A DNA stretch of 64,000 bases from an uncultured Lentisphaerales bacterium (GTDB lineage Bacteria > Verrucomicrobiota > Lentisphaeria > JABSQK01 > JAJFLO01): positions 13,814 to 77,813 of the forward strand of contig CAZTTH010000008.1 in assembly GCA_964615975.1 (NCBI GenBank). Direction: 5' to 3'. The notes beneath the pieces are model-generated. The model saw only the letters and a list, made by a program, of their open reading frames with translations. It searched no databases and had not been told where the DNA came from. Position 1 is the stretch's first letter; every line of letters starts with the position of its first letter. Shown here one piece after another: positions 5,790 through 20,654 of the stretch. Both the position numbers and the translations under genes were made by a program.

Positions 5790-7862
5790 TTAAGCTCGTA
5801 AGTCATCCAGGAATTCTGAGGCTGGTTCAATGCCTGTGACCAGTAAATGATCCCTTGCCCGTGTACAAGCGACATAAAGCAAGTGACGTTCAGTGTCGTA
5901 GACCTCTTGCAAATCGGCATCGTCACCGACTGTTTCAATACGTTCCTGTAAGGGGATAATCTCGTCATCACAGGATATCACGGCCACGGCGCGGAATTCA
6001 AGCCCCTTGGCCAGGTGCATGGTGCAGATCGATACATGACCACTGCTCGTCTCGACATGGTCATCGAGGATATTGAATGGCAAACCCGACTCCTTGACTG
6101 CATCTTGAGCTCGTTCCAGTTGCCCTGGTGAACGCACGAAGACGCCGAATTCATGGGGTAGGAGACCGGCTTTCGTGAGCTCGGCAATCCATGTACCAAC
6201 AGAACTTATTTCGTCATTTTCACTCTTGAACACGCGAATGTCGGGTAATGGACCATTGAAGATCGAAATTGTATCGCTCCGATCTTCTCGATTGCCGTCC
6301 ACATCAGTAACTTCCGGACCAAGCAGACGATCAGCTTGCTGGCGGATTTGATGGGATGTGCGATAATTGATTCGCAGCGTGCGGGAACGACCGCGGATAT
6401 CAACACCGAGTGATTTCCAGGAGAAGGGTTGTTGGAAAATACGCTGACCAAGATCACCGGCAAAGAATAAAGCGTTGGAGCGCTCACCACCAAGCACGGC
6501 AAGGAAGCGGAGTTGTGAAACACTGAGATCCTGTGCCTCGTCAACAACTACAAAATCGAAGGGTAGCTTTTTGCTTTCCACCAATGTGGACGACAAGGCA
6601 GTGAAAATCCCCGCATGAGTGGATAACTTCCGCTCTTTCAATCCACTGCTGACCTGCTCAAAGATAGACCAGAGTACCACTCGTCGCTTTTCGGGCAGCC
6701 GGGTTTTGCGGCCAAGGCGGGCTACATCGCGGTAAGACTCCCATGTTTCCAATTGCCACGCATCGACGACTTGTTCCCATTCGGTAACCAGGAAATGCAG
6801 ACTGAACTTGTGATCTCCCACCACTTTCGCCGCGACATTGAGCAATTCCCGCACGATATCACGAGTGGCCAGGTTCACCTTGCCACATTGTGATTTAAAG
6901 AGTCGGAGACCGATGGCATTCAGGGAGTAAACTTCAATGCGTTCGACAAGACGCGGTTCGTTGCCGACCAATCGTTTTAGCTTGGTACGAAGCGCATTTG
7001 CCAGCGTGTCGGAAAAGGTTGTGAGCAGGATGCGGGCATCGGGATAGGCGCGGGCCAGATACACTGCCCGATGCAACGCCACAATCGTCTTTCCGGTTCC
7101 AGCCGATCCTGAAACACGGGATGGTCCATTTTGGTCGCGTTCCACCCATTGACGCTGTTCGGGATGGAGAAAAACAGTCCACTTCTCCCAGGGGAAATCG
7201 AGAGCACATTGAAGCTCTTCGATATTGTTCATCACCCGGAAGCGGCGTTGCGCATCGGGGTGATCAAACGGACTTGCAATCGGCATGGCCGGTTGAATCA
7301 CTCGCGGTTTGCCACCGGTGGCAAGTTCCAGGAGCGCTTCAGCCGCTTCCCCGGGCAGACGTTCCGCTAACAATAACAGGCTGTCTTCATTAACCTGGCG
7401 CACATCATTCAACCATTCTGCCGGCACGCCATAGCCAAGCAGTTCTTCATCGGAATTGGCGGTAAACAGGGGTGGTTTCGGTAGCGCCGGCAATTCCTGT
7501 TGCACATACACTGGTACATAGACCTCCTTCACCGTCTCGCGAATTTCCACGAGCTGAGCCGCCCCCGTCTTGGGATGCGTTTCCAGTTTCCGGCGTTGCG
7601 CCCAATTATAGGCTTTATCGTGGTGATCGACATAACAGAGCATCAAACTGGTACCGGTTTTGTGAACGATGAGCCGAATATCACTGGTTGCTCGAATCGA
7701 CCAGAAGTTGGCATCTTTGGCGCCCTCAATACGATGGCATTGCATCCCGGGATTGAGGGGATTCATCTGCAGGTCAAATGCCGTTGTCTTGACCGCTTTC
7801 TGCTCATCGCCGGTCAGGCGTGCAAGGCTATCGGTGAAGGTGGCGGCAATGCGGAAGTTCAT
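5790..7862 (-). CDS. SF1 UvrD/Rep-like helicase with an N-terminal RelE/ParE-like domain
   Basis: Helicase motifs: GSAGTGKT (I), VVVDEAQDLS (II), FFAGDLGQRIF (III), INYRTS (IV), TMHLAKGLEFRAV (V) and LLYVACTRARDHL (VI). The GAGGA Shine-Dalgarno sits about 7 nt upstream of the ATG. The first ~95 aa (FWSIRATSDIRLIVHKTG..LMLCYVDHHDKAY) look toxin-fold-like. Confidence 0.85.
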   Translation of the reverse strand: MNFRIAATFTDSLARLTGDEQKAVKTTAFDLQMNPLNPGMQCHRIEGAKDANFWSIRATSDIRLIVHKTGTSLMLCYVDHHDKAYNWAQRRKLETHPKTGAAQLVEIRETVKEVYVPVYVQQELPALPKPPLFTANSDEELLGYGVPAEWLNDVRQVNEDSLLLLAERLPGEAAEALLELATGGKPRVIQPAMPIASPFDHPDAQRRFRVMNNIEELQCALDFPWEKWTVFLHPEQRQWVERDQNGPSRVSGSAGTGKTIVALHRAVYLARAYPDARILLTTFSDTLANALRTKLKRLVGNEPRLVERIEVYSLNAIGLRLFKSQCGKVNLATRDIVRELLNVAAKVVGDHKFSLHFLVTEWEQVVDAWQLETWESYRDVARLGRKTRLPEKRRVVLWSIFEQVSSGLKERKLSTHAGIFTALSSTLVESKKLPFDFVVVDEAQDLSVSQLRFLAVLGGERSNALFFAGDLGQRIFQQPFSWKSLGVDIRGRSRTLRINYRTSHQIRQQADRLLGPEVTDVDGNREDRSDTISIFNGPLPDIRVFKSENDEISSVGTWIAELTKAGLLPHEFGVFVRSPGQLERAQDAVKESGLPFNILDDHVETSSGHVSICTMHLAKGLEFRAVAVISCDDEIIPLQERIETVGDDADLQEVYDTERHLLYVACTRARDHLLVTGIEPASEFLDDLRA

Positions 7863-7932
7863 GAACTTTCCTCACCCGTCACTTACAATCGTTTTCAGTT
7901 TTCATCTCAGGATATCCTCGATATAACTCGGA

Positions 7933-9858: not shown

Positions 9859-9969
9859 TGATTTATCCTTATGTTTTTGGGTCTAACCAATTTCATATAT
9901 AACATTAACAAAATTAAGATAGACAATTCAATCCGTCTGAGGTCTGTATTTTACCCACACTGACCAAAA

Positions 9970-10125
9970 TCACCTGTCCTTTGCCCTGTCGAGTTTATAG
10001 AAGATCAGTGCCAATCTTGCCAGGTTAACCTGCAAATCAAATGCTGTCGTCTGAACTGCTTTCTGCTCATCGCCAGTCAGGCGTGCAAGGCTATCGGTGA
10101 AGGTGGCGGCGATACGGAATTCCAT
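9970..10125 (-). pseudogene. 5' fragment of a second, diverged helicase allele (N-terminal 33 codons, then unrelated sequence and a stop)
   Basis: nt 10030-10125 align without gaps to nt 7767-7862, with 84/96 identical by hand count. It translates to MEFRIAATFTDSLARLTGDEQKAVQTTAFDLQV, versus MNFRIAATFTDSLARLTGDEQKAVKTTAFDLQM in the helicase. Confidence 0.85.
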
Positions 10126-10242
10126 TTCTTATTTCTAAACTTATTTATTTTATTTATAAATTTTTATTTTCAAAACAAGCGTTTTTGCAATGAGTTATGA
10201 TTTTCTTATAAATATTTTTTTATTAAAATCGCTGTTTTATTT

Positions 10243-11898
10243 CTAAATAAGATGCCATTTCGGGTATTTTCGCGATCCTTCATTCCGGATTAAGTCCTCC
10301 CTTGCCATCGACTGAATCAGGTTAGTTACTTTGTTACGTTTCCGATCATCATCCAGGACATCAGATAATTTGCTGAATAAGAGCTTATCGATATCCTGGC
10401 GTGTGGCATGGCCATACTTCCGAATGAATTCCAGAATCATCTGCTTGTAATGTGCATCGTCGAAAGCGCGGTTTTTTATATACTGTGCTTTATCTCCAGT
10501 GGCCGAGGCGATATGCGCTGCCACGTATAGATTGGGATAACGGCCTTCAATAAGTTTATCATTTCGTAGCATATTCGCTTCATCTTTGGATACTGCTTGT
10601 CGTTTCTGAATTCGGTCTAATAAAATCACTTTGCTCAGCGGCAAATCTTTCTGATCCATAAGCATGACGGTGTAATTAGGGTCAATCACCTGGCCATGTA
10701 TGGTTACGATTACTTTACCCGGTGTCGATAGATTGAAATCGGGTAACGGATAAAATCGCTTGCGTTGCTCCTGGAACATCCGTCGAATGCCATATCCCAT
10801 GGTATCGATCATATTCACATTCACCATGGCGTCTGCGAGAAAACGATTACGATAGCGCTCTGGGGTCTTTTCCCGCAACGTATAATCCTCAAGCCCACCT
10901 TCGAAAAAATCTCCCGCACTCTCAAATACCAAACGATCAGGTCGCTCCGCGACAATTATCCGCGCTTGCTGGCGGTAATCCTGATGGGCAATCGCATTAT
11001 GCATTGCTTCCAGTACCACCCATTTTTCATACTTGGGGACTTCAAATGGAACCAGTTGACCGGGGACATCAAGCTTTTGCATGGTATTACGAATCCGGGC
11101 ATAACATTCACTGGTAGTCAGGAGAAATGGCGGACTGAAGTGTTCGTATGCCTGTTCCGTTCCTTCCAGTTTCCAGGTGATTTGCGCTACTGCCGGTTCC
11201 AGATGATAAGCCGCTTCTTCTCGCCCCAGCAACAGCAGACATGCACGGGTAATCGCGCCGTTCTTTGTCAATTTGGCTTTATCCAGCAATGTCGTATTCG
11301 ACCATGAATCAATCTCTCCGGCAAAGTACTTGTTTCGATTTTTATCACGAAAGTTCCGCCGAGCCGCCACGATTGCCTCCGAATTCAAGTCGTCAATAGT
11401 GGCTTGTGAACAGATTTCTGCTGACCAATCATCAAGCACTGCTTGTGACCGAATCTGCTCCAACTCATGAAGACTTAAGGCGACCAGCGACTCCCCATCG
11501 CGACCATACCAATGCCCTTTGAAGGAGACCGGCAACCCGGGCGGCGCCGCGGGAACCTGAAACATAATGACCCGGCCAGCGGCATGATACGCAATGTGAA
11601 TATCGATAAAACTCATGCGATTGGTTTGATTGGCAATTTCATGTTTAAGGCTATTCAAATAGTCTGCTTTGTCGCGATAACGACTCCCACAAATGCTCCG
11701 ATCATCATTGGCGATGCCGAACACCAGCCAGCCACAGGGTTGATGCTTGAGGTTTGCTTCATTCGCCAACGCTGAAAAATATTGCCCCAGTTTATCGAAG
11801 GAGAAATCATTTTTCGCTTCTTTGAACTCCACCCATTCCGTTTCATGGGGAAGCTGTCGTAGTTCATCAAGTTTATCAAGTAATTGCTGATTCGTCAT
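10243..11898 (-). CDS. AlbA_2/Schlafen-like (divergent AAA) DNA/RNA-binding protein with a RecG-C-terminal-like ATPase/wHTH region
   Basis: ETEWVEFKEAKNDFSFDKLGQYFSALANE is the hallmark N-terminus of the AlbA_2 family. The start overlaps the mod stop by 4 nt. Confidence 0.75.
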   Translation of the reverse strand: MTNQQLLDKLDELRQLPHETEWVEFKEAKNDFSFDKLGQYFSALANEANLKHQPCGWLVFGIANDDRSICGSRYRDKADYLNSLKHEIANQTNRMSFIDIHIAYHAAGRVIMFQVPAAPPGLPVSFKGHWYGRDGESLVALSLHELEQIRSQAVLDDWSAEICSQATIDDLNSEAIVAARRNFRDKNRNKYFAGEIDSWSNTTLLDKAKLTKNGAITRACLLLLGREEAAYHLEPAVAQITWKLEGTEQAYEHFSPPFLLTTSECYARIRNTMQKLDVPGQLVPFEVPKYEKWVVLEAMHNAIAHQDYRQQARIIVAERPDRLVFESAGDFFEGGLEDYTLREKTPERYRNRFLADAMVNVNMIDTMGYGIRRMFQEQRKRFYPLPDFNLSTPGKVIVTIHGQVIDPNYTVMLMDQKDLPLSKVILLDRIQKRQAVSKDEANMLRNDKLIEGRYPNLYVAAHIASATGDKAQYIKNRAFDDAHYKQMILEFIRKYGHATRQDIDKLLFSKLSDVLDDDRKRNKVTNLIQSMAREDLIRNEGSRKYPKWHLI

Positions 11899-14800
11899 GG
11901 GTTCACCCGGAATACCTTCATTACCTCGTCTCCAAGATGGTTGATTACTTTGATGGCGATGCGGCCGGACTTCGGCTTCTCGAATGGGCGGGAGGTGTCA
12001 CTGTTCAGAGTGGCCCAGGCGTCGGCGTTGATCTCGGCTTTGAGAGTGGTCTTGAGGGCGCTGTAGGGATCGTTGGCGCCAAGGAAATATGCATGGCGGA
12101 CAAAGAAGCTTTCTTCATTGTAATCGGTGTCGATGAACCAGCAGGCAATGCCATCGGTATTGCAGCTTTCTACTTCACCGGTTTGGGGTTTGAAGACATC
12201 CACTCCATTTACAGTGACCTGGAAATAGTGGCGAGTGGTCAGGGGAGAGTGGATAGCGATTTGATCAATGCGTTTAGCATTTTGTTGATCTTGGCACAAT
12301 TGTTCAATAAGTTTTCGCAGTCCTTCCTGGAAAGAAGTTCCAGCCTTTCGGACAAGATCAGAAAGGTTTCCAACTCCGCCAGCGATCCCCGCGCAATGCC
12401 AAGCGATTGTAGAAACTCCCCCGTGCTCCTGCGGGCCTGCCCTTCGGCGATGTTTGCCGGGACGGAGGTCACTGCCCGTCGCATTTGTGATGTAATCCCA
12501 TATCTCTCGGCGGCAGGAAAGCTGCGCGTAATCGCGTAGGTCTGCACCGCCAAGTCGATTGATTTCTGCCAGACTATTAACTCCCGATATGAGCTTATAG
12601 ATTTCATAAGGTGCTATTCTCCTTTCTGAACTATCCACTAACCACTCTTCACTTGCCACTTCAATATCAGGTTCCCCGAATATCACAAACAAGTTGCCTT
12701 TGCCGGTGTTCTTGAGATCTTCAGCCATGTGGAGGTCGGCGTTCATGCGGGCTTTGAGCACTGGGATGCGGCCCAGCTTCTTGAATTCGGTGGTGTGCGC
12801 TTCGTAGTTAAAAGCGCAGACGATCAAGACATCAAACCCGGCATCGCCGGCTTCGCGGGCGGCGGCGACGAGATCGGCGCGCTGGACGGTGCCGAACTCG
12901 GGGCCGATGAAGATTCCAGCACGGATTTCCGTGCCGGAATCAGTGGATAGTGAGGAGTGGTTAATGGCATATTTTTCTTGTTGATCACCCTTCACTAACC
13001 ACTCACCACTTGCTTCAAACCGCCCTTCGGCGCAGACCAATTCGCCCGGCCAGGGAACCAACGAGGTGAAAGTGATCCGATCCTCCTTGTGCGCCTGCTG
13101 CACCCCTGCGGTCTTGAGGTTTTCCAGAACCATCTGGGGGAATGACTGCTTTCCATATTCGACACCGCCTTCCAACATGGTGTCGATCAATTCGTCGTCC
13201 TCGTCGACCCCGAGCACACGATGAGGTGAAAGACTCTCCACGGTGAAGGGACCGGCGACGCGGACTGTCTTCTTGTCCTCATAGGGTTTGTCGTAGAGAT
13301 ATTCGACATCAGCCTTGGCGGAAATCGACGCATCAATTTCCTTTTGGCGGGCAATTCGTTTGTGCCACCAGTCGGAATGCAGCTTCAGAATGTGGGACAG
13401 ACATTCTTGTCTGTCTTTAGGGGGGAGTTTGGCGGTGGAAGAAGCAGACAGGAATGTCTGCTCCACACTGGCAGATTCGCGCGGAATTTCCCATTCTTCC
13501 CATTTCATATTAAGCGCGGTATTGAGCTCTGCTCGAAGAAATTCCAGCTCTGGTTGGAATTTCTCCCAGATAACATCGATCTCGGCGTTGTTGGCGATGG
13601 ACTTGAGCGTGATGTGTGGCACACGTTCATAGACGAAGCCGTGGCGGATGTTCCCCTGCACCGGTTGCGAACTTGGGGCGGTGCGAGTGACTTCGGCTTC
13701 CTTGAGCTGACCTTCAATGGAATCGACTAGTAGGTAAAAGGGATACCGTGCGCCCATGATGCGAGCACGGGCCAATGCCAGCGCCACGCGTGAGGTGTCG
13801 ATCGTGATCCAACGGCGCCCCCATTGCTCGGCGACGGTGGCGGTGGTACCAGAACCGCAGGTCGGGTCAAGTACGAGGTCACCGGGATCGGTGGCCAAGA
13901 GAAGGCATCGTTTTATTGCTTCTGTAGCAGTCTGAACGACAAAAATCTTTGGATCTGCACGGCTTTGAATGCCCCCGATATCATCCCAGACGTTTGAAAG
14001 TGTATGAACGGGAAAATCTTCAATGTAGCGAACGTAATTTAATATCTGCTTGCTCGGAGAAATACGATTTGCCAATTCGAGTCTGGCCATGCCATTGGGT
14101 GTTGTCTTCCAACTGCCTTGGTGTTCGCAGTTTCGTAGTGTCACTAACACTACTGGGTTTGCTTCTGACGTTGTCTTGTCGAGACGGAAAATTCGTGACG
14201 CGGGCGGGAAGGCATCAGGGAATTTTTCACTCGCTTGTTTTAGTGTAATTCTTGTTCCATCTGGTAGTTCGACTCCGTTGTATTTTGTGCCGCCATGTTC
14301 TCCTGGTCTCTTCTCGGCGTACAGATGCCGTGCTTTCGCATGGGTCTTATGCTTTGCGAACCAGAGAATGAAATCGCATTTGTTATTCACGAAGTCTTGA
14401 ACAAGACCTCCTGTCTTTACGAATGTGATTTGGCTGACACAATTCTCTTCTCCGAAGACCTCATCCATCACTGCCCGGACACGGTGAACATTTTCATCGC
14501 CGATCTGGACGAAGATGGAGCCGGAATCTGTTAACAAGTCACGGGCCACTGTCAACCGGTCCCGCAGGTAGGTAAGGTAGCTATGGATGCCTTCGCGCCA
14601 GGTATCGCGAAAGGCTTTAACTTGTTCGGGTTCACGTGTAATATGATCAACCTTGCCGTCCTTCACATCACGGCTGGTGGTGGACCACTGGAAATTGCTA
14701 TTGAACTTGATGCCATAAGGCGGATCGATATAGATGCACTGCACCTTGCCGCGCAACCCCTCGCGCTCGGCCAGGCTGGCCATGACCTGGAGGGAGTCGC

Positions 14801-15230
14801 CGAGGATCATGCGGTTGGACCAATTCTGATCGTGTTGATAGAACTCAGTCTTGTCCACGCCCTGAGGAATGCCATTAAAATCCGCGAATAAGTCTGGCTG
14901 CCACGATTCGGTGGAGTGATTAGTGGATAGTGAAGAGTGGCGCAGTAGATCGTCAATCAATACCTTGGGGTGAATTTTCTCCTGAATGTATAACGGCGGG
15001 GCATGGACAACGAGATCGCTCCAGTCCTGTTCATCCTTGCCGCGCCAAACGAGTTGGGGATCGAGATCGGTGTTGCGGGGATAACGCACCTGCTTGGGGT
15101 TCTGCTGCTCCTTCTCCAGCACCGACTGGTATTCGGCGGTGGGAATGTTCTTGCGCGTCGCGTCGTCGTGCTTGAGTGTTTCGACTGTCTTGGTTTTATT
15201 GTTTGCATTGGCCATGTTATTAAATCCCAA
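11895..15230 (-). CDS. mod: type III-like N6-adenine DNA methyltransferase (Mod), 1111 codons including several in-frame insertions
   Basis: IYIDPPYGIKFNSNFQ (motif IV, DPPY), LVLDPTCGSGTTATVAEQWGRRWITID (motif I), and the conserved C-terminus CWFIDTDYNEESFFVRHAYFLG...IAIKVINHLGDEVMKVF. Confidence 0.85.
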   Translation of the reverse strand: MGFNNMANANNKTKTVETLKHDDATRKNIPTAEYQSVLEKEQQNPKQVRYPRNTDLDPQLVWRGKDEQDWSDLVVHAPPLYIQEKIHPKVLIDDLLRHSSLSTNHSTESWQPDLFADFNGIPQGVDKTEFYQHDQNWSNRMILGDSLQVMASLAEREGLRGKVQCIYIDPPYGIKFNSNFQWSTTSRDVKDGKVDHITREPEQVKAFRDTWREGIHSYLTYLRDRLTVARDLLTDSGSIFVQIGDENVHRVRAVMDEVFGEENCVSQITFVKTGGLVQDFVNNKCDFILWFAKHKTHAKARHLYAEKRPGEHGGTKYNGVELPDGTRITLKQASEKFPDAFPPASRIFRLDKTTSEANPVVLVTLRNCEHQGSWKTTPNGMARLELANRISPSKQILNYVRYIEDFPVHTLSNVWDDIGGIQSRADPKIFVVQTATEAIKRCLLLATDPGDLVLDPTCGSGTTATVAEQWGRRWITIDTSRVALALARARIMGARYPFYLLVDSIEGQLKEAEVTRTAPSSQPVQGNIRHGFVYERVPHITLKSIANNAEIDVIWEKFQPELEFLRAELNTALNMKWEEWEIPRESASVEQTFLSASSTAKLPPKDRQECLSHILKLHSDWWHKRIARQKEIDASISAKADVEYLYDKPYEDKKTVRVAGPFTVESLSPHRVLGVDEDDELIDTMLEGGVEYGKQSFPQMVLENLKTAGVQQAHKEDRITFTSLVPWPGELVCAEGRFEASGEWLVKGDQQEKYAINHSSLSTDSGTEIRAGIFIGPEFGTVQRADLVAAAREAGDAGFDVLIVCAFNYEAHTTEFKKLGRIPVLKARMNADLHMAEDLKNTGKGNLFVIFGEPDIEVASEEWLVDSSERRIAPYEIYKLISGVNSLAEINRLGGADLRDYAQLSCRREIWDYITNATGSDLRPGKHRRRAGPQEHGGVSTIAWHCAGIAGGVGNLSDLVRKAGTSFQEGLRKLIEQLCQDQQNAKRIDQIAIHSPLTTRHYFQVTVNGVDVFKPQTGEVESCNTDGIACWFIDTDYNEESFFVRHAYFLGANDPYSALKTTLKAEINADAWATLNSDTSRPFEKPKSGRIAIKVINHLGDEVMKVFRVNP
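12227..12660 (-). mobile_element. IVS-like cassette inside mod: a four-helix-bundle gene bounded by 30-nt imperfect inverted repeats
   Basis: The arms at 12227-12256 (agtggcgagtggtcaggggagagtggatag) and 12631-12660 (ctatccactaaccactcttcacttgccact) are reverse-complementary at 23/30 positions by hand count. They enclose the ORF 12239-12607. Confidence 0.55.
12239..12607 (-). CDS. four-helix-bundle protein (23S rRNA intervening-sequence protein / Avd-like family), nested in mod in a different frame
   Basis: YRELIVWQKSIDLAVQTYAITRSFPAAERYGITSQMRRAVTSVPANIAEGQAR...GSLAELETFLILS is the classic family signature. It has its own AAGGAG Shine-Dalgarno about 11 nt upstream of the ATG. Confidence 0.8.
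   Translation of the reverse strand: MKSISSYRELIVWQKSIDLAVQTYAITRSFPAAERYGITSQMRRAVTSVPANIAEGQARRSTGEFLQSLGIARGSLAELETFLILSERLELLSRKDCENLLNNCAKINKMLNALIKSLSTLP
12942..13013. repeat. 'empty' hairpin made of the same AGTGG/CCACT arm family, in frame within mod
   Basis: agtggatagtgaggagtggttaatgg, a ~19-nt loop, then ttcactaaccactcaccacttgc. The right arm is near-identical to 12636-12657. Confidence 0.6.
13396..13461. repeat. pair of short perfect palindromic hairpins inside mod coding sequence
   Basis: GACAGACA-ttct-TGTCTGTC (13396-13415) and GCAGACA-ggaa-TGTCTGC (13444-13461). Same hairpin family as 15410-15429. Confidence 0.7.
14911..14940. repeat. solo arm of the AGTGG repeat family within the 5' part of mod
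   Basis: gtggagtgattagtggatagtgaagagtgg. The stretch agtggatagtgaagagtgg matches 12942-12960 at 18/19. Confidence 0.55.
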
Positions 15231-15473: not shown

Positions 15474-15707
15474 TTATATTTTGCCATCGCGTTTCAATTC
15501 GATAATCATGTCCTCAAACGAAACTAATGGTTCATCCGCGCGCATATCGAAGGCGGCTAAATCCTCTGTATCCTCCGCCAGCGACAATATTACCGCTTCA
15601 TTAACGAGGTCGGACATCGATCTTGATGTATCAATGGACTTTTGCTGTAATGCTTTATGAATATCCGGTTTTAGGTAAATAGTGGAACGTTTTGATAATA
15701 CTGTCAT
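15474..15707 (-). CDS. ribbon-helix-helix (CopG/ParD-like) antitoxin, now orphaned
   Basis: STIYLKPDIHKALQQKSIDTSRSMSDLVNEAVILSLAEDTEDLAAFDMRADEP is typical of RHH antitoxins that pair with RelE/ParE toxins. Confidence 0.65.
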   Translation of the reverse strand: MTVLSKRSTIYLKPDIHKALQQKSIDTSRSMSDLVNEAVILSLAEDTEDLAAFDMRADEPLVSFEDMIIELKRDGKI

Positions 15708-15777: not shown

Positions 15778-16350
15778 TCAAACTGCCAATCGGTCAGTGA
15801 CTACATCATCGATCATCTTGTTGAACTCGGCTTCAACCTTTTTAGTAAAATCCGCCTCGATCTGATAAACCATGCGTTCGCTCGCCCGGATTTCGCAGAC
15901 CTCTTCAAGCAGTTCCTCGAAGTATCGCCGGTCGAAACGAGTGCCGTGTTTAAAGCGGTCGGAATCGATAGCGAAACCTTTGAGGATGTAGTCCTTTAAC
16001 CGATCGGTAGCCCAGGTACGAAATTGGGTCGCTCGCACGCTTTTGACGCGATACCCAACAGCTATGATCGCTTCGAGGCTGTAAAGCTTCGTACGATACT
16101 GCTTGCCATCAGCGGCAGTTACCGAGGATTCCTCGGTAACTGCTGATTCGATTAGTTCTTGATCGGCGAAAATATTCTTTAAATGCAAGGAGATATTGTC
16201 GGTGGAACACTCATAAAGTTCGGCTATGAGTTTCTGGGTGAGCCAAACATTTTCGTTCTCGAAGCGAACTTCAACGCGAGCCCGCCCATCTTCACTTGCG
16301 AAGATGGTGATATTGTCGATGCGTATAGGTTGCGAATTTTTAGACATCAT
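15778..16350 (-). CDS. RhuM-family protein, truncated and fused to a Res-type C-terminal tail
   Basis: The RhuM core is LYSLEAIIAVGYRVKSVRATQFRTWATDRLKDYILKGFAIDSDRF...EIRASERMVYQ. The last ~25 aa (IEADFTKKVEAEFNKMI) are homologous to the Res C-terminus (IEADFSKKVKFEFDRML). Confidence 0.75.
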   Translation of the reverse strand: MMSKNSQPIRIDNITIFASEDGRARVEVRFENENVWLTQKLIAELYECSTDNISLHLKNIFADQELIESAVTEESSVTAADGKQYRTKLYSLEAIIAVGYRVKSVRATQFRTWATDRLKDYILKGFAIDSDRFKHGTRFDRRYFEELLEEVCEIRASERMVYQIEADFTKKVEAEFNKMIDDVVTDRLAV

Positions 16351-17435
16351 TAACTTCCTTCCTGCATGGATTCTCTGGTCAAAATAGCATTCAAGGCGGT
16401 GTTAATGTAGTAATTAGTCCGCCCTATTTTTTGTTTTTTAAGGAAGCCGCCGCCGGTCAACGCATCGAGATATTTGGTGGCGGTGAGGCGCGACACCTTC
16501 AGATCACGTTCGACGAATTCGATCTTGGTATAGGGGTGGGTAAACAGGTTATTGATCAGATCCTGACTGTAAAACTTGTACTCCGCGCGAATACGGTGCT
16601 TCGCATCCATCAACGCCGCATTAATGGCATGGATGGTTTCGATGGCATCACCGGCGGTTGATTCAATGGCGGTAAGCAGGTAAAGCACCCACTCTTCCCA
16701 TGCATCGTTTTCGCGAACACTCTGAAGCAGTCGATAATAATCCGGTTTGGTGCGGACGATGTGGCGGCTGAGATATAGCACCGGGATATCGAGCAGACCT
16801 TCCTTCACCAAGTAAAGCACATTAACGATGCGGCCGGTGCGGCCATTGCCATCATAGAACGGGTGGATACTTTCAAACTGGTGATGGATCAACGCCATTT
16901 TAATGAGCGGGTCAGCGGCAAATAAATCACGATCATTGATGAAACGCTCAAGATCGCGCATGAGCGCGATAATGGTATCTGGATCTTGCGGCGGCATATA
17001 GATCGCCTGACCAGAGCCATCTTTCAACACAGTCCCTGGCAGTTTGCGGAAACCGGCGTTGTTTTGCTCCAGCTCTACCTGAATCTGAATGATATGGTTG
17101 ATGGTAAGCAGACCACTTTGTTGCACTAGATCGAATCCAACCCGTAAAGCCTGGCGATACCGTAGTACCTCCTTGGCGGCGCCATGGTGCAAGTTCTCGG
17201 GAAAAAGGTCATCTTTATATAATTCGTCATGAGTGGTCACGATGTTTTCTATGGCCGAACTATCCTTGGCCTCCTGTATTCCCAGAGTGTTGATGAGTAT
17301 CCCCTGGTTAGGAATGGAGGCGGCGACTCCCTTGAGTTCAGCTAGTTTACGACTTGTTAAAGCCAATTTTTTAAGGATAACGGGAGTATCGAATCTTATC
17401 GACGGCAAACGATCTAATGGCAGAATGGTGGTCAT
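16350..17435 (-). CDS. Fic-family protein (AMPylase/adenylyltransferase type) with a C-terminal wHTH
   Basis: Fic motif HPFYDGNGRTGR. The stop overlaps the rhuM start. Confidence 0.9.
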   Translation of the reverse strand: MTTILPLDRLPSIRFDTPVILKKLALTSRKLAELKGVAASIPNQGILINTLGIQEAKDSSAIENIVTTHDELYKDDLFPENLHHGAAKEVLRYRQALRVGFDLVQQSGLLTINHIIQIQVELEQNNAGFRKLPGTVLKDGSGQAIYMPPQDPDTIIALMRDLERFINDRDLFAADPLIKMALIHHQFESIHPFYDGNGRTGRIVNVLYLVKEGLLDIPVLYLSRHIVRTKPDYYRLLQSVRENDAWEEWVLYLLTAIESTAGDAIETIHAINAALMDAKHRIRAEYKFYSQDLINNLFTHPYTKIEFVERDLKVSRLTATKYLDALTGGGFLKKQKIGRTNYYINTALNAILTRESMQEGS

Positions 17436-17537: not shown

Positions 17538-20500
17538 TCATAATGATGCCGGCCGCGGGTGTATTATCATGCTTAACATCCGATCAAATTCAAATTTAAC
17601 CTTCTTGGAAAAATCTGCCTCAATCTGATAAACATCATTGAACTCGGCGAATGCCCAGCGGCCAAACGTGCCCAGGTTGTTCACACCGGGTACCCAGTAG
17701 GTTTCGATGGCGGACTTCTTATCCTTGGCATCCTCGCGGCGGTAGCCTTTGATCTCAACAATCAGATGGAGGAGATCGTCGGGCCCGTGGCCGTCATCCA
17801 CGCGCACGATAAAGTCCGGCAGATACTTGCGGATTTCAGAACCATGGCGATAGGGCACTTCGAGGCCGAGGTTGTGATTTTTGACGTAGGCATGAACTTT
17901 AGGGTGCGACTCGGCGACCCGGCAGAACTCGGCTTCCCAATCGCTGTCGAGGATAACCCAGTTGATATGGCAACTCTTGGAACTGGTTTCCCAGCGGTCA
18001 CGGCGCGAGGTGTTAAAGCGAACATGGGCCGTGGAGCCCGTGGGATTATAAGGGTCGAGCAGGGCTTTGATGGGACGTTCTCCGACGAAGGCGCGGGTAA
18101 TACCGGCAGTAATGCGTTCGCAAGCTATATCAGCGAGCATTTTGTATTTTAACTGCGCGGGGTAAGTTCTACCCTTGCAAATCAAGCAAGTGTCCAGCCA
18201 ATGCTTGGCAATCCGTTTCAATTGTCCGAAAAGATTAAAATGGGCAGACTGCCCCGGGTCACGCCAATGATTCAGAACGAGATGGGAAGTCAATTCAAAA
18301 AGAATTTGTGATGGACGCACCTCTCTAGTATGATCGAGAGTCAGGTCGACAGTTTGTCCAATTATTCCAGACTGACGAGTCGTTGTTGCACCAACCAACT
18401 CCGGGGTAAGCTCAAGAATCGAGTCTTGGTCAAATTGGGCAATTAGACGATCATCGGGCAATTCAACACGATAGCCTGCCACACGGGGGAAAATTATCTC
18501 CAGATGATTTCTCTCTGGGCTAATGGCTTTCACTCGGACGGTTTGCGGGGGTGGTTGTGGGGGAGAGATTACGGGCTGGGCTGTAAAGTTAAAGGGAATG
18601 CCAATAATATCAGCATATTCTACATTGAACAATCCTTTATCCGATCCTTCCTCATTTAGCCAATAGGACCATCGCCTCAGAGCTCGGCCGATGACCTGTT
18701 CACATAGTAGCTGAGTACCAAAAGCCCGAACTCCAAGTACATGAGTGACAGTGTTGGCATCCCAGCCCTCGGTAAGCATGGAAACTGAAACAACACAACG
18801 AATGTCACTACCAAGTGTCCCAGGTTTGCCCACAGTGTTCATAACTTCCCGCAATAGGGTTGTATCGTCGAAATCTTTTCCTTCCCTCAATTGCTCCGCC
18901 AAGGGGCCGCCTCTTTCCATAACTTGACTCTTGAACTGAGTAATTTCAGGGGCTGCAACTGCTCGGAAGTTATCATCGAAACCTTCCCCCGATTCCAATT
19001 GAGCGCTGTCGATGAGCAATGTGTATGGGCGAGTTAATGGGTTGCCGTGCTCGTCATGATTTCGGAATAGTTCGAGACGTCCACCCACAGGCTTGAAGCT
19101 TCCATCCTCCTGCAGTTGATCAAAGCCAGAAATGAAATCGTAGATTAGCTTCGAAACGGCCGTGTTCTGACAAACAATGATAAAGCATGGCGGAACCGGG
19201 ATCCCTCTTTCTCGCCAACACTGAAAAGTTTTGGAATAGTGGCCATAGAGTGCTTCGAGTGCGGTTTGAAGTAAGGGGGGCAGGCTCAAAGGGTCAAGTC
19301 TAGACTGACCGCGCTTTTTCTTTGGCATTTTCGAGCGCACGTTCTCCCACAGATTTCTGAATAACGGAACGTCAGCTCCGGGTATGTTGTCCGAGACTGG
19401 AACCCGAGGCAATTTCACGATTCCGCACTCAATTGCGTCCATGAGTGAAAAATCGCTCATCGTCCAGTGGAACATCGTACCTTCTCGATATCCAGAGCCA
19501 CGGAGAAAGAAAGGTGTTGCAGAAAGATCGATTACACGAAGAAGACCGATTTTGCGATTCACTTTCTCAAGTCCCGAAATCCAAAGTCGTGCCGCCTTGT
19601 TGTTCTCCGCAGCTTCTTCCCTGGCTTCTCTCAGTGCGTTGCCAGAAAGAGGATTACCTTCTGAATCAGTGAACTGACTGTCGTCTGCAGGTTTCTCACG
19701 ATAACAGTGATGTGCCTCGTCATTTATAACAAGGATATTTTTCATGCCCATGAGTTCGGGCATGACACGTTGAATCATCTGGCCTTCGGTCTCAAGTGTT
19801 AGCGGATCATCACCGGTTCGGCCCTTGAGGAGTTGACGGTTGCCTTTTGAAAGATTGGTGCGCTCCCGGAGTTTGAAGGCATGGTAGTTGGTGATGACAA
19901 TCTTGGCCTTCTTGAGATCGTCGAGCATATCATGCGGCACGAGTTCGCGGCTAGCATAATAGCTGTCAGGATCGTGGGGTTGGAGGACGCGCAGACGATC
20001 CTTGATGGTCAGACCGGGGGCGACGATGAGGAACCCACGGCTGAAATATTTGCTGCCAGGGCGGCGGACAGCATTGATGGTTTGCCAGGCGATAAGCATG
20101 GCCATAACGGTGGTCTTGCCAGCGCCGGTGGCCAGTTTCAGGGCGAAGCGCATGAGTTCAGGATTGGCATCCTGATTAGCGCTTGCCAGGTAATCGAGCA
20201 ATTGTTTACTGCTCTTATAAAAGGGAGCGACTTCGGTCAGCCAGATGGCGGTTTCGACCGCTTCAATCTGACAGAAGAACGGGCGGAAGTCGCCGAATTT
20301 ATGGTGACGCCAGTGCTGCAGCAGGCGGGTTGTCTCGGGGCTAACCTGCCATTGGCCGGGATTGGACAACGCCCGCCAGGCATTCACATGGCGGCGAACT
20401 TCATTGATGTTGGACGTAGGATCGTATTGCTGATCCTTGGTCGAAAGCCCCTGGCCTTCGTCGAATACGAATTCTTCCTGAGCGGCGGATTGCTTCCGCT

Positions 20501-20654
20501 TCTTCGGTTTGGGAATAGGAGTGATAAACTCAGCCCGGCGACGACTCAGCATGATCCGCTGTGTCGGTTGTCCAGATTTATCCAATTCCCAGTGTCGACT
20601 TGGACACTCATAAGGCGAGTTGAGGATGGGGTGGTCGAAGAAGGGATTGGACAT
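17538..20654 (-). CDS. res: type III-like restriction endonuclease / SF2 helicase subunit (Res)
   Basis: KLATGAGKTTVMAMLIAW (Walker A / motif I), LVINDEAHHCY (DEAH, motif II), and MLTEGWDANTVTHVLGVRAFGTQLLCEQVIGRALRR (motifs V-VI). Confidence 0.9.
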   Translation of the reverse strand: MSNPFFDHPILNSPYECPSRHWELDKSGQPTQRIMLSRRRAEFITPIPKPKKRKQSAAQEEFVFDEGQGLSTKDQQYDPTSNINEVRRHVNAWRALSNPGQWQVSPETTRLLQHWRHHKFGDFRPFFCQIEAVETAIWLTEVAPFYKSSKQLLDYLASANQDANPELMRFALKLATGAGKTTVMAMLIAWQTINAVRRPGSKYFSRGFLIVAPGLTIKDRLRVLQPHDPDSYYASRELVPHDMLDDLKKAKIVITNYHAFKLRERTNLSKGNRQLLKGRTGDDPLTLETEGQMIQRVMPELMGMKNILVINDEAHHCYREKPADDSQFTDSEGNPLSGNALREAREEAAENNKAARLWISGLEKVNRKIGLLRVIDLSATPFFLRGSGYREGTMFHWTMSDFSLMDAIECGIVKLPRVPVSDNIPGADVPLFRNLWENVRSKMPKKKRGQSRLDPLSLPPLLQTALEALYGHYSKTFQCWRERGIPVPPCFIIVCQNTAVSKLIYDFISGFDQLQEDGSFKPVGGRLELFRNHDEHGNPLTRPYTLLIDSAQLESGEGFDDNFRAVAAPEITQFKSQVMERGGPLAEQLREGKDFDDTTLLREVMNTVGKPGTLGSDIRCVVSVSMLTEGWDANTVTHVLGVRAFGTQLLCEQVIGRALRRWSYWLNEEGSDKGLFNVEYADIIGIPFNFTAQPVISPPQPPPQTVRVKAISPERNHLEIIFPRVAGYRVELPDDRLIAQFDQDSILELTPELVGATTTRQSGIIGQTVDLTLDHTREVRPSQILFELTSHLVLNHWRDPGQSAHFNLFGQLKRIAKHWLDTCLICKGRTYPAQLKYKMLADIACERITAGITRAFVGERPIKALLDPYNPTGSTAHVRFNTSRRDRWETSSKSCHINWVILDSDWEAEFCRVAESHPKVHAYVKNHNLGLEVPYRHGSEIRKYLPDFIVRVDDGHGPDDLLHLIVEIKGYRREDAKDKKSAIETYWVPGVNNLGTFGRWAFAEFNDVYQIEADFSKKVKFEFDRMLSMIIHPRPASL

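Follow-up and report, generated by a model that had tools for sequence, protein, structure and literature searches.

A decaying helicase gene start as the probable scar of defence cassette stacking in a Res-MTase-helicase operon

The window analysed here is a 64,000-nt stretch of DNA from an uncultured Lentisphaerales bacterium, and the element under study is a short open reading frame (ORF) within it that repeats the start of a nearby helicase gene. The ORF lies in an operon that resembles a Type III restriction-modification (R-M) system. Read along the minus strand, which carries the fragment, the cassette and the helicase alike, the order of genes was a restriction endonuclease gene (Res), SoFic, a truncated RhuM gene, a 77-aa ORF, a DNA methyltransferase (MTase) gene, an AlbA_2 gene, the helicase-start fragment, a three-gene cassette that begins with a TIGR04255 gene, and the full-length helicase gene (Table 1). 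As judged by profile matches, Res and Mod (an N6/N4 methyltransferase) genes are present in one operon, as in a Type III R-M system, but the composition is not the two-gene one of Res and Mod only, since a helicase with an extra N-terminal domain follows Mod. The space between the MTase and the helicase thus holds two modules, first AlbA_2 and then the TIGR04255 cassette, and the fragment sits precisely at their seam. A sequence-only reading of this DNA had described the cassette as bracketed by two direct copies of the helicase start, and all three cassette ORFs do lie between them.

Table 1. Positions of the operon genes, spacers and repeated segments in the window.
Feature	Position	Strand	Remarks
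Full-length helicase, 690 aa, third core gene	5790-7862	minus	Pfam UvrD-helicase and UvrD_C
Spacer, 70 nt, cassette to helicase ATG	7863-7932	minus	Dissimilar to the spacer that precedes the fragment ATG
Cassette gene 3, 142 aa	7933-8361	minus	Predicted ADP-ribosyltransferase (ART)/NAD-utilising fold
Cassette gene 2, 238 aa	8351-9067	minus	No family or structure match
Cassette gene 1, 264 aa	9064-9858	minus	NCBIfam TIGR04255, E 1.7e-11
AT-rich spacer, 94 nt	9859-9952	minus	Holds the non-homologous junction
Helicase 5' pseudogene fragment, codons 1 to ~58	9953-10125	minus	Ungapped alignments to the window helicase and to the family
Near-identical patch (fragment nt 16-68)	10058-10110	minus	52/53 identical to 7795-7847 of the full-length gene
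Very AT-rich spacer, 117 nt, AlbA_2 stop to fragment ATG	10126-10242	minus	
AlbA_2 / HATPase_c_4 protein, 551 aa, upstream cargo module	10243-11898	minus	Pfam; start overlaps the MTase stop by 4 nt
Type III-like DNA methyltransferase, second core gene	11895-15230	minus	Pfam N6_N4_Mtase; PADLOC MTase_III PDLC03632, 1355 bits
77-aa ORF	15474-15707	minus	
Truncated RhuM ORF	15778-16350	minus	Pfam; cut at residue 163 of a ~334-aa family
Res 3' stub fused in frame to RhuM	15778-15870	minus	Last ~30 Res codons, compared with Res 17541-17633; join at VYQ/TATCAG
SoFic	16350-17435	minus	
Res, BPTD_3080-family restriction endonuclease, first core gene	17538-20654	minus	NCBIfam NF046055, 1319 bits; Pfam ResIII and RE_endonuc

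The fragment and the full-length helicase aligned without gaps over 96 nt (10030-10125 against 7767-7862), and 84 of these bases were identical. This recount agreed with the figure given by the sequence-only reading, and a repeat scan of the window independently recovered the pair as a 101-nt repeat of 86% identity. The binomial chance of at least 84 matches in 96 at p = 0.30 is approximately 1e-31. The aligned segment comprises 32 codons rather than the 33 that had been counted, and the 30 identical residues reported earlier were found again (30/32). Third codon positions accounted for nine of the 12 base differences, and a first-position change, CTG/TTG, was also synonymous. The similarity between the two copies began precisely at the ATG, with none upstream of either start.

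Further along the fragment, comparison with other members of the helicase family altered the picture. A tblastn census covered 80 related helicase loci (L001-L080). The fragment had been thought to run into unrelated sequence after codon 33; alignment to family members instead extended its homology through codon ~58, for a true extent of approximately 9953-10125. The distal part had looked unrelated because the full-length helicase of the window is itself atypical there. In a sliding comparison over nt ~61-180, identity to the family was 0.51-0.54 for the full-length gene and 0.68-0.73 for the fragment, and over nt 97-174 the fragment matched the alleles of L005 and L001 at 54 of 78 positions, compared to only 33 of 78 for its full-length neighbour. 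The alignments lost similarity past nt ~173, which places a non-homologous junction near 9952, about 75 nt beyond the DLQ(M/V)N codons where the illegitimate join had been proposed. The 94-nt spacer that follows matched only itself in a blastn-short search against all 81 loci, and had no core-gene homology and no MTase remnant.

The stop at codon 52 (TGA, 9970-9972) is present as described, but it does not mark the end of homology: it is a nonsense change in place of a family Asn, inside the homologous region. The translated fragment reads ..DLQVNLARLALIFYKLDRAKDR, in-frame stop, FWSVWVK against ..DLQVNPAGPGLSFHKLEKAKDKNFWSVRVS in the family; over a longer stretch it reads MEFRIAATFTDSLARLTGDEQKAVQTTAFDLQVNLARLALIFYKLDRAKDR, in-frame stop, FWSVWVK, compared with MDFRIADTFTDSLARLTGDEQKAVKTTAFDLQVNPAGPGLSFHKLEKAKDKNFWSVRVS in a typical family member. 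Six residues that are at least 90% conserved in the family were changed (D7A, K25Q, P35L, G39A, H43Y and R57W). Codons 33-58 differed from the nearest alleles by 11-15 non-synonymous codons, against a family mean of 6.3. The nonsense codon and the replaced conserved residues therefore mark a pseudogene remnant of a second allele, neither a fresh duplicate nor a conserved small gene; judged from these alignments, 9953-10125 is a decaying remnant of the first ~58 codons of another helicase allele. The earlier view of a diverged allele rather than a fresh duplication was upheld in this respect, as the distal half resembles other family alleles and not the neighbouring gene. Duplication of the helicase start in place, followed by divergence and with no foreign allele involved, would account for the 84/96 identity over 32 codons and for a rare Ala7 common to both copies. 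It is nevertheless scarcely credible, since past nt 96 the fragment is nearer to the alleles of other genomes than to its neighbour and keeps the mainstream family sequence where that neighbour is atypical.

A 53-nt patch common to both helicase starts (Table 1), which was absent from the sequence-only reading, behaved differently from the remainder of the fragment. Within it, 10076-10110 and 7813-7847 match perfectly over 35 nt, and codon 7 is GCC (Ala). Among 80 family genes this codon was GCC in one only, the window's own; every other locus had an acidic codon 7 (GAC, GAT, GAA or GAG), and Ala was found in just one other of 115 related proteins. In 515 family pairs of similar overall divergence the best 53-nt window had 49 identities and none had 52, a comparison that allows for the post hoc choice of window. 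The 52/53 level was reached in four of 3081 family pairs, all four of them close relatives overall. The patch probably records an exchange of homologous sequence between the copies, whether at the initial crossover or through gene conversion afterwards.

The MTase lay upstream of the helicase in 67 of the 80 related loci, and the distance from the MTase stop to the helicase ATG was measurable in 66. Thirteen loci had 1-11 bp between the two, one had 54 bp, and the other 52 had 342-7919 bp. The boundary between Res and MTase spanned 3-85 bp if empty and up to 3.9 kb if filled; Res, Mod and helicase were co-linear in 41 loci (within 10-kb flanks). Because these boundaries are empty in some loci and filled with cargo in others, the operon can be regarded as a platform that carries defence cargo in two slots within it. 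The slot cargo amounted to 135 ORFs in 100 sequence clusters, 120 of the ORFs being in operon orientation. By Pfam and NCBIfam profiles it included HamA, GmrSD, AbiEii-type and other ATPases, SIR2, DRT-like reverse transcriptases, DarT with Macro, ABC-3C components, a TrlF/Ppl-like ATPase and RhuM. AlbA_2, which is in the MTase-helicase slot here, occupies the Res-MTase slot of L023, L064 and L077, and RhuM shows the reverse arrangement.

Thousands of helicase relatives were found across phyla at 68-83% aa identity (Verrucomicrobiota, Proteobacteria, Nitrospirota, Planctomycetota, Acidobacteriota and one Clostridiales bin), and the last 107 residues of the MTase were 80-94% identical across phyla. 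From such high cross-phylum identity, the whole operon appears to have been spread widely by horizontal transfer. The MTase end (..GRIAVKV.., ~21 codons before the stop) and the helicase start (MDFRIAD.., nt 9-19) are identical over 8-11 bases, CCGCATCGCCG, in about 14 of 58 loci, for example L038, L028 and L002. The repeat encodes RIA in both proteins, and a second common repeat is GGCGA(C/T)GAG; none of the examined junctions sits exactly on these slot-flanking short direct repeats. Three loci retained cargo and helicase with only an N-terminal fragment of Res near an MTase 3' remnant: L009 (7526-7660, 8480-8734), L061 (4192-4320, 4417-4737) and L026 (1832-1921). These operons look like products of internal deletion in which most of Res and the MTase was lost.

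The terminal 60 residues of each core gene were then searched against all loci for extra truncated copies between cargo modules, and four parallels to the window fragment were found. Between a Hel308-like module and RhuM cargo, L051 has helicase nt 1-105 fused to the last ~23 codons and stop of the MTase, with GGCC common to both sides of the junction. In L038, genes of 445 and 397 aa flank a stub in which the first 16 nt of the helicase are fused to the last ~29 MTase codons, with an internal TAG and a common TCG at the junction. The stub of L018 covers helicase codons 1 to ~25 and lies between a TrlF-like ATPase and two further genes; in L036 the last ~21-23 MTase codons separate a DRT-like reverse transcriptase from a TIGR04255 cassette. 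The helicase stubs ended at different places in the four loci that have them, the window included (nt 16, ~75, 105 and 173); those of the other loci comprised 5 to ~35 codons, compared to ~58 here, and their downstream fusions varied. The stubs of upstream genes were all short, at 21-30 codons.

A further scar of this type is found in the window itself. The stub VYQIEADFTKKVEAEFNKMI.. resembles the Res end VYQIEADFSKKVKFEFDRML.., with 85% identity over 39 nt to the 3' end of Res, and is fused to RhuM; the boundary between Res and MTase is therefore a second slot with stacked modules, SoFic with RhuM and then the 77-aa ORF. Junctions in the slots had 3-5 nt of microhomology, with TATCAG at the Res-RhuM join, and the variable breakpoints together with this short microhomology indicate illegitimate joins. 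Homology-facilitated illegitimate recombination, with one homologous and one illegitimate join, had been suggested for the fragment from the outset, and it fits both the window and the four parallel loci with their differing breakpoints.

The recurrence of stubs also bears on whether the 51-codon ORF (9970-10125) has a function of its own, as a leader peptide or upstream ORF, or as a promoter and translation start for the cassette. Its ATG and first 32 codons are well kept, the differences are mostly synonymous, and a long AT-rich region lies upstream. A short leader ORF conserved in relatives would have spoken against a scar altogether, but core-gene stubs occurred in only four of 52 other filled slots, and these differed in length and in downstream fusion. 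The ORF has lost conserved residues and carries a nonsense codon within its homology. It ends 111 nt ahead of the start of cassette gene 1, which leaves no translational coupling. Scans for promoters and terminators around the fragment had no hits on the strand concerned, and the number of sites was below that in shuffled sequence. Copying from the full-length gene would explain the preservation of nt 16-68, and a functional role is considered most improbable.

The cassette downstream of the fragment has a GC content of ~0.40, compared to ~0.52 for the core genes. Its first gene is rare, with 25 homologous proteins. Among the homologues with readable context, those in the unrelated neighbourhoods of L083, L085 and L087 are followed by genes of 214-217 aa and then 119-144 aa, matched to the cassette by size and not by alignment. 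The size-matched trio of L085 is surrounded by ordinary metabolic genes and has no adjacent recombinase gene, and L087 has an integrase pair upstream. By its composition and recurrence the cassette is an autonomous unit, and its third gene, from the predicted fold, is likely to encode the effector. The AlphaFold2 model of gene 1 (predicted local distance difference test score 89) had no significant fold match, and none of the three cassette proteins gave a significant hit when its sequence was searched against solved structures. No cassette homologues were detected by tblastn in the 80 helicase loci, and a metagenome scan with gene 2 found two short loci only. Literature searches on TIGR04255 and on BPTD_3080 found no papers.

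The commonest cargo of the MTase-helicase slot was another TIGR04255 gene with genes of ~183 aa and ~147 aa, found in six loci of different phyla: L023, L027 (1524-2072), L036 (5404-5844), L046 (8282-9073), L050 and L058. The window cassette was considered as a version of this cargo and rejected, as profile comparison found the 142-aa family unrelated to the 147-aa third gene (probability 0.35%); only the TIGR04255 component is related.

In profile and transfer RNA (tRNA) scans, the cassette and window positions 1-30000 as a whole were free of integrase, transposase and tRNA genes. In an integron check, which consisted of an integrase scan and a repeat scan with no attC model, there was no integrase and no paired inverted repeats bounded the cassette, the only candidates being the weak pairs I8 and I9. 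These results bear on a site-specific integrative element that would insert at the helicase 5' end and bring with it a substitute start for the gene. Prophage e14 and phage 21 enter icd in this manner and bring a replacement 3' end, as islands enter tRNA genes, by means of a site-specific integrase and a fixed core, and the copy brought by the element restores the gene. The window is like e14 in icd in that diverged direct copies of a gene end flank the insert and the functional copy is restored, and the atypical stretch of the helicase (nt ~61-180) ends near the fragment end (nt 173). It is unlike e14 in icd in that no recombinase was found and the breakpoints vary between loci, whereas a fixed crossover core would give stub ends at one place. 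In addition, the fragment end and the equivalent position of the full-length helicase differ in sequence, and the size-matched trio of L085 has no adjacent recombinase, although that of L087 has the integrase pair. An element of this kind is accordingly rated as very improbable.

Taken as a whole, the fragment is likely to be the seam between two separately acquired defence modules, AlbA_2 upstream and the TIGR04255/238-aa/ART-fold cassette downstream, and so a scar of cassette stacking. DNA of another version of the operon, with different cargo, would have recombined with the resident operon. For one join the conserved helicase 5' end would have served as homologous anchor, and the helicase 5' end does lie on both sides of the cassette (84/96, 52/53 in the patch, 35 nt in an exact run); the patch would be the probable trace of that anchor, or of a later gene conversion. 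The other join, at about 9952, would have been illegitimate. The incoming module would have been added beside the older one and not in its place, leaving a truncated helicase start stranded between them, and the stub would then have decayed through one nonsense codon and changes at conserved residues. The sequence-only reading had a foreign cassette with its helicase allele invading a resident helicase gene. The part that concerns foreign DNA stood, as the fragment is at the edge of a low-GC foreign cassette; the free-standing helicase did not, as this is the third gene of an operon with AlbA_2 cargo already upstream.

All the scar products have the same form. The left side derives from one operon and consists of a core gene with cargo a, to which the next core gene adds 0-58 codons; the right side derives from another operon and has 0-30 codons contributed by the upstream core gene, followed by cargo b and then the next core gene. 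The homology, its extent and decay, the slot structure, the recurrence of stubs and the lack of recombinase genes are observations, and the order of events, their direction and the type of DNA transfer would follow from the model. Either the cassette entered an operon that already carried AlbA_2, or AlbA_2 entered one that carried the cassette, as the mirror-image event with the MTase as anchor yields the same product. The shortness of the upstream stubs may have two causes. A long MTase arm would let both ends recombine homologously and replace cargo a without a scar, and stacking would be expected only when the arm is too short; long direct repeats would also be lost quickly by recombination, leaving short stubs.

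The same scar could have arisen by another route. A circular or tandem intermediate consisting of an MTase 3' stub, cargo and a helicase 5' stub might form by microhomology in one donor operon and enter by a single Campbell-type crossover in the helicase 5' segment; alternatively, one copy of a tandem duplicate might have its cargo swapped by double crossover. The head-to-tail joins of helicase 5' to MTase 3' sequence in L051 and L038 are the product expected, a Campbell crossover within the repeat would give the 52/53 patch in one step, and the two gene ends have the 8-11 nt RIA repeat in common in ~14/58 loci. However, there is no MTase stub at the window junction, no examined junction lies at the RIA microhomology, and no circular form was observed. 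The distal 105 nt of the fragment are also far from the neighbouring gene, where simple tandem duplication predicts otherwise. This route is regarded as unlikely.

Several observations weigh against stacking by homology-facilitated illegitimate recombination. The fragment and the neighbouring gene have only one rare nucleotide variant in common, at nt 20; the equivalent comparison of stub and neighbouring gene gave none in L051 and one in L018 and was uninformative. There was no clean recombination breakpoint within the full-length helicase in sliding nearest-neighbour and group-affinity profiles, in which only nt ~61-180 was atypical. Detectable stubs were present in only five of 53 filled MTase-helicase slots, and most exchange would thus have been scarless or its scars have decayed. 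The stubs of upstream genes begin in a narrow range, 21-30 codons before the stop, which random illegitimate joins do not predict. No sister genome was found that has only one of the two modules, and the state before the event was deduced from distant loci (68-81% aa identity); the closest known helicase is 83% identical at the aa level, with no near relative of this genome in the searched collections. Microhomology could be read only at joins for which both parents can be approximated, namely those of L051 and L038 and the Res-RhuM join of the window. Finally, the structure rests on one assembled contig.

This last point raises the question of mis-assembly, in which two strain variants with different cargo were joined through a common helicase start. 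The single source contig, the lack of another copy in the collections and the 35-nt exact run common to both copies would be in keeping with it. A k-mer mis-join switches paths, however, and does not produce a truncated copy with 105 further diverged bases, a nonsense codon and a unique spacer. Similar architecture was also seen in independent assemblies from other phyla (L018, L051, L038 and L036), and a second scar of like type lies 6 kb away in the window. An assembly artefact is very unlikely to explain the fragment.

The core genes had further features of their own. Codons ~21-60 of the window helicase (nt ~61-180, 7682-7802) diverge from every family member, reading NPLNPGMQCHRIEGAKDANFWSIRATS where the family has NPAxPGLSFHKLxKAKDKNFWSVRVSS; outside this stretch the gene groups with the Verrucomicrobiota alleles L001, L002, L003 and L005. 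The divergence could be a patch from another allele or the result of fast evolution. The N-terminal domain of the helicase is called RelE-like by JGI in several homologues, and Pfam made no detection here. In the MTase, residues ~862-1003 (12221-12644, 423 extra nt) are missing from most homologues. This insert holds a complete ORF for a 23S_rRNA_IVP four-helix bundle (12239-12607, same strand, +1 frame, Pfam E 8e-39), and it does not interrupt the MTase frame. Neither frame was interrupted in any of the six loci with the insert (the window, L013, L054, L051, L004 and L050), with IVP identity down to 55%; the insert is either a conserved dual-coding overlap of ~120 codons or an intervening element in a protein-coding gene. 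Repeats within the MTase gene (12927-12960 against 14907-14940, and 12636-12656 against 12993-13013) encode a ..HSSLST(N/D).. peptide motif near the edges of variable or inserted segments, and a similar peptide, NLNHSTD, follows the helicase stub in L018. The neighbours of the operon are ordinary genes, among them those for ferrochelatase, an Hsp70-like protein with DUF2760, alanyl-tRNA synthetase and a RecF-like protein.

Scars of this kind are known from other systems. In type VI secretion system (T6SS) clusters of Vibrio cholerae, arrays of orphan immunity genes and displaced ends of effector genes have been attributed to homology-facilitated illegitimate recombination (Kirchberger et al. 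2017, PMC5361080). The present operon resembles those arrays (PMC5361080) in its conserved-gene anchor, the presumed illegitimate join at the other end, the displacement rather than deletion of older modules, the remnants of gene ends and the lack of an integrase. It differs from them (PMC5361080) in that the cargo is anti-phage defence within an R-M-helicase operon and not toxin-immunity pairs, in that each slot has anchors on both sides, and in that what is left behind comes from core-gene ends (helicase 5', MTase 3' and Res 3') and not from cargo. Displacement of C-terminal regions at Rhs and contact-dependent inhibition (CDI) loci, as summarised in PMC5361080 from Jackson 2009, Poole 2011 and Koskiniemi 2014, is likewise a case where conserved segments flank variable modules and truncated conserved copies mark earlier states. 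According to that summary, a single ORF there holds both the conserved and the variable part, and recombination can reactivate orphans, whereas here the remnant is the dead 5' end of a separate gene.

Homology-facilitated illegitimate recombination itself has been described in Acinetobacter, S. pneumoniae, P. stutzeri and E. coli (de Vries and Wackernagel 2002, Prudhomme 2002 and Meier and Wackernagel 2003, as cited in PMC5361080; also PMC3240628). As in those laboratory events, in which the illegitimate join is at short GC-rich microhomology, the scars here appear to combine one homologous anchor with an illegitimate join, at GGCC in L051 and TCG in L038; the Res-RhuM join of the window has TATCAG. 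The laboratory events had defined donors, whereas here the event is deduced from its product and the anchors have ~70-85% DNA identity outside short perfect runs. P2-like phages and P4-like satellites are reported to carry variable anti-phage hotspots between conserved genes (Rousset et al. 2022, PMC9122126). The likeness to those hotspots lies in diverse defence cargo in a fixed slot; the difference lies in the platform, which here is neither phage nor satellite but an R-M-helicase operon of the chromosome with two slots inside it. Such scars inside a Res-MTase-helicase platform with defence cargo were not found in the searched literature, and embedded cargo in Type III-like operons was absent from the 12 of 29 passages listed for an R-M review. 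The kind of scar is thus already known from Rhs, CDI and T6SS loci, and its setting in a defence-cargo operon is new to the searched literature.

A broader proposal, put forward tentatively, is that the Res-MTase-helicase operon may act as a recombinase-free, integron-like platform. Its unusually conserved gene ends (the last ~107 residues of the MTase, 80-94% identical across phyla, and the nearly invariant first ~32 of the helicase) would serve as portable homology arms for swapping and stacking anti-phage cassettes across phyla in the two slots, and the stubs would be fossils of stacking when one arm was too short.

How defence genes cluster and move without obvious mobile-element genes is unsettled, and one route has left traces in the sequence of this locus and its relatives, a route in which conserved operon genes act as anchors, new cargo is placed beside old and stubs of the anchor genes are left at the seams. 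The 35-nt perfect repeat predicts that the cassette could be lost again through recombination between the two helicase starts. Stubs of core-gene ends within slots can be used as a search key, both to delimit independently acquired modules and to pick out candidate defence systems such as the TIGR04255/ART-fold cassette. On its own the scar is ordinary; together with its parallels it is direct sequence evidence of defence-module stacking without mobile-element machinery.

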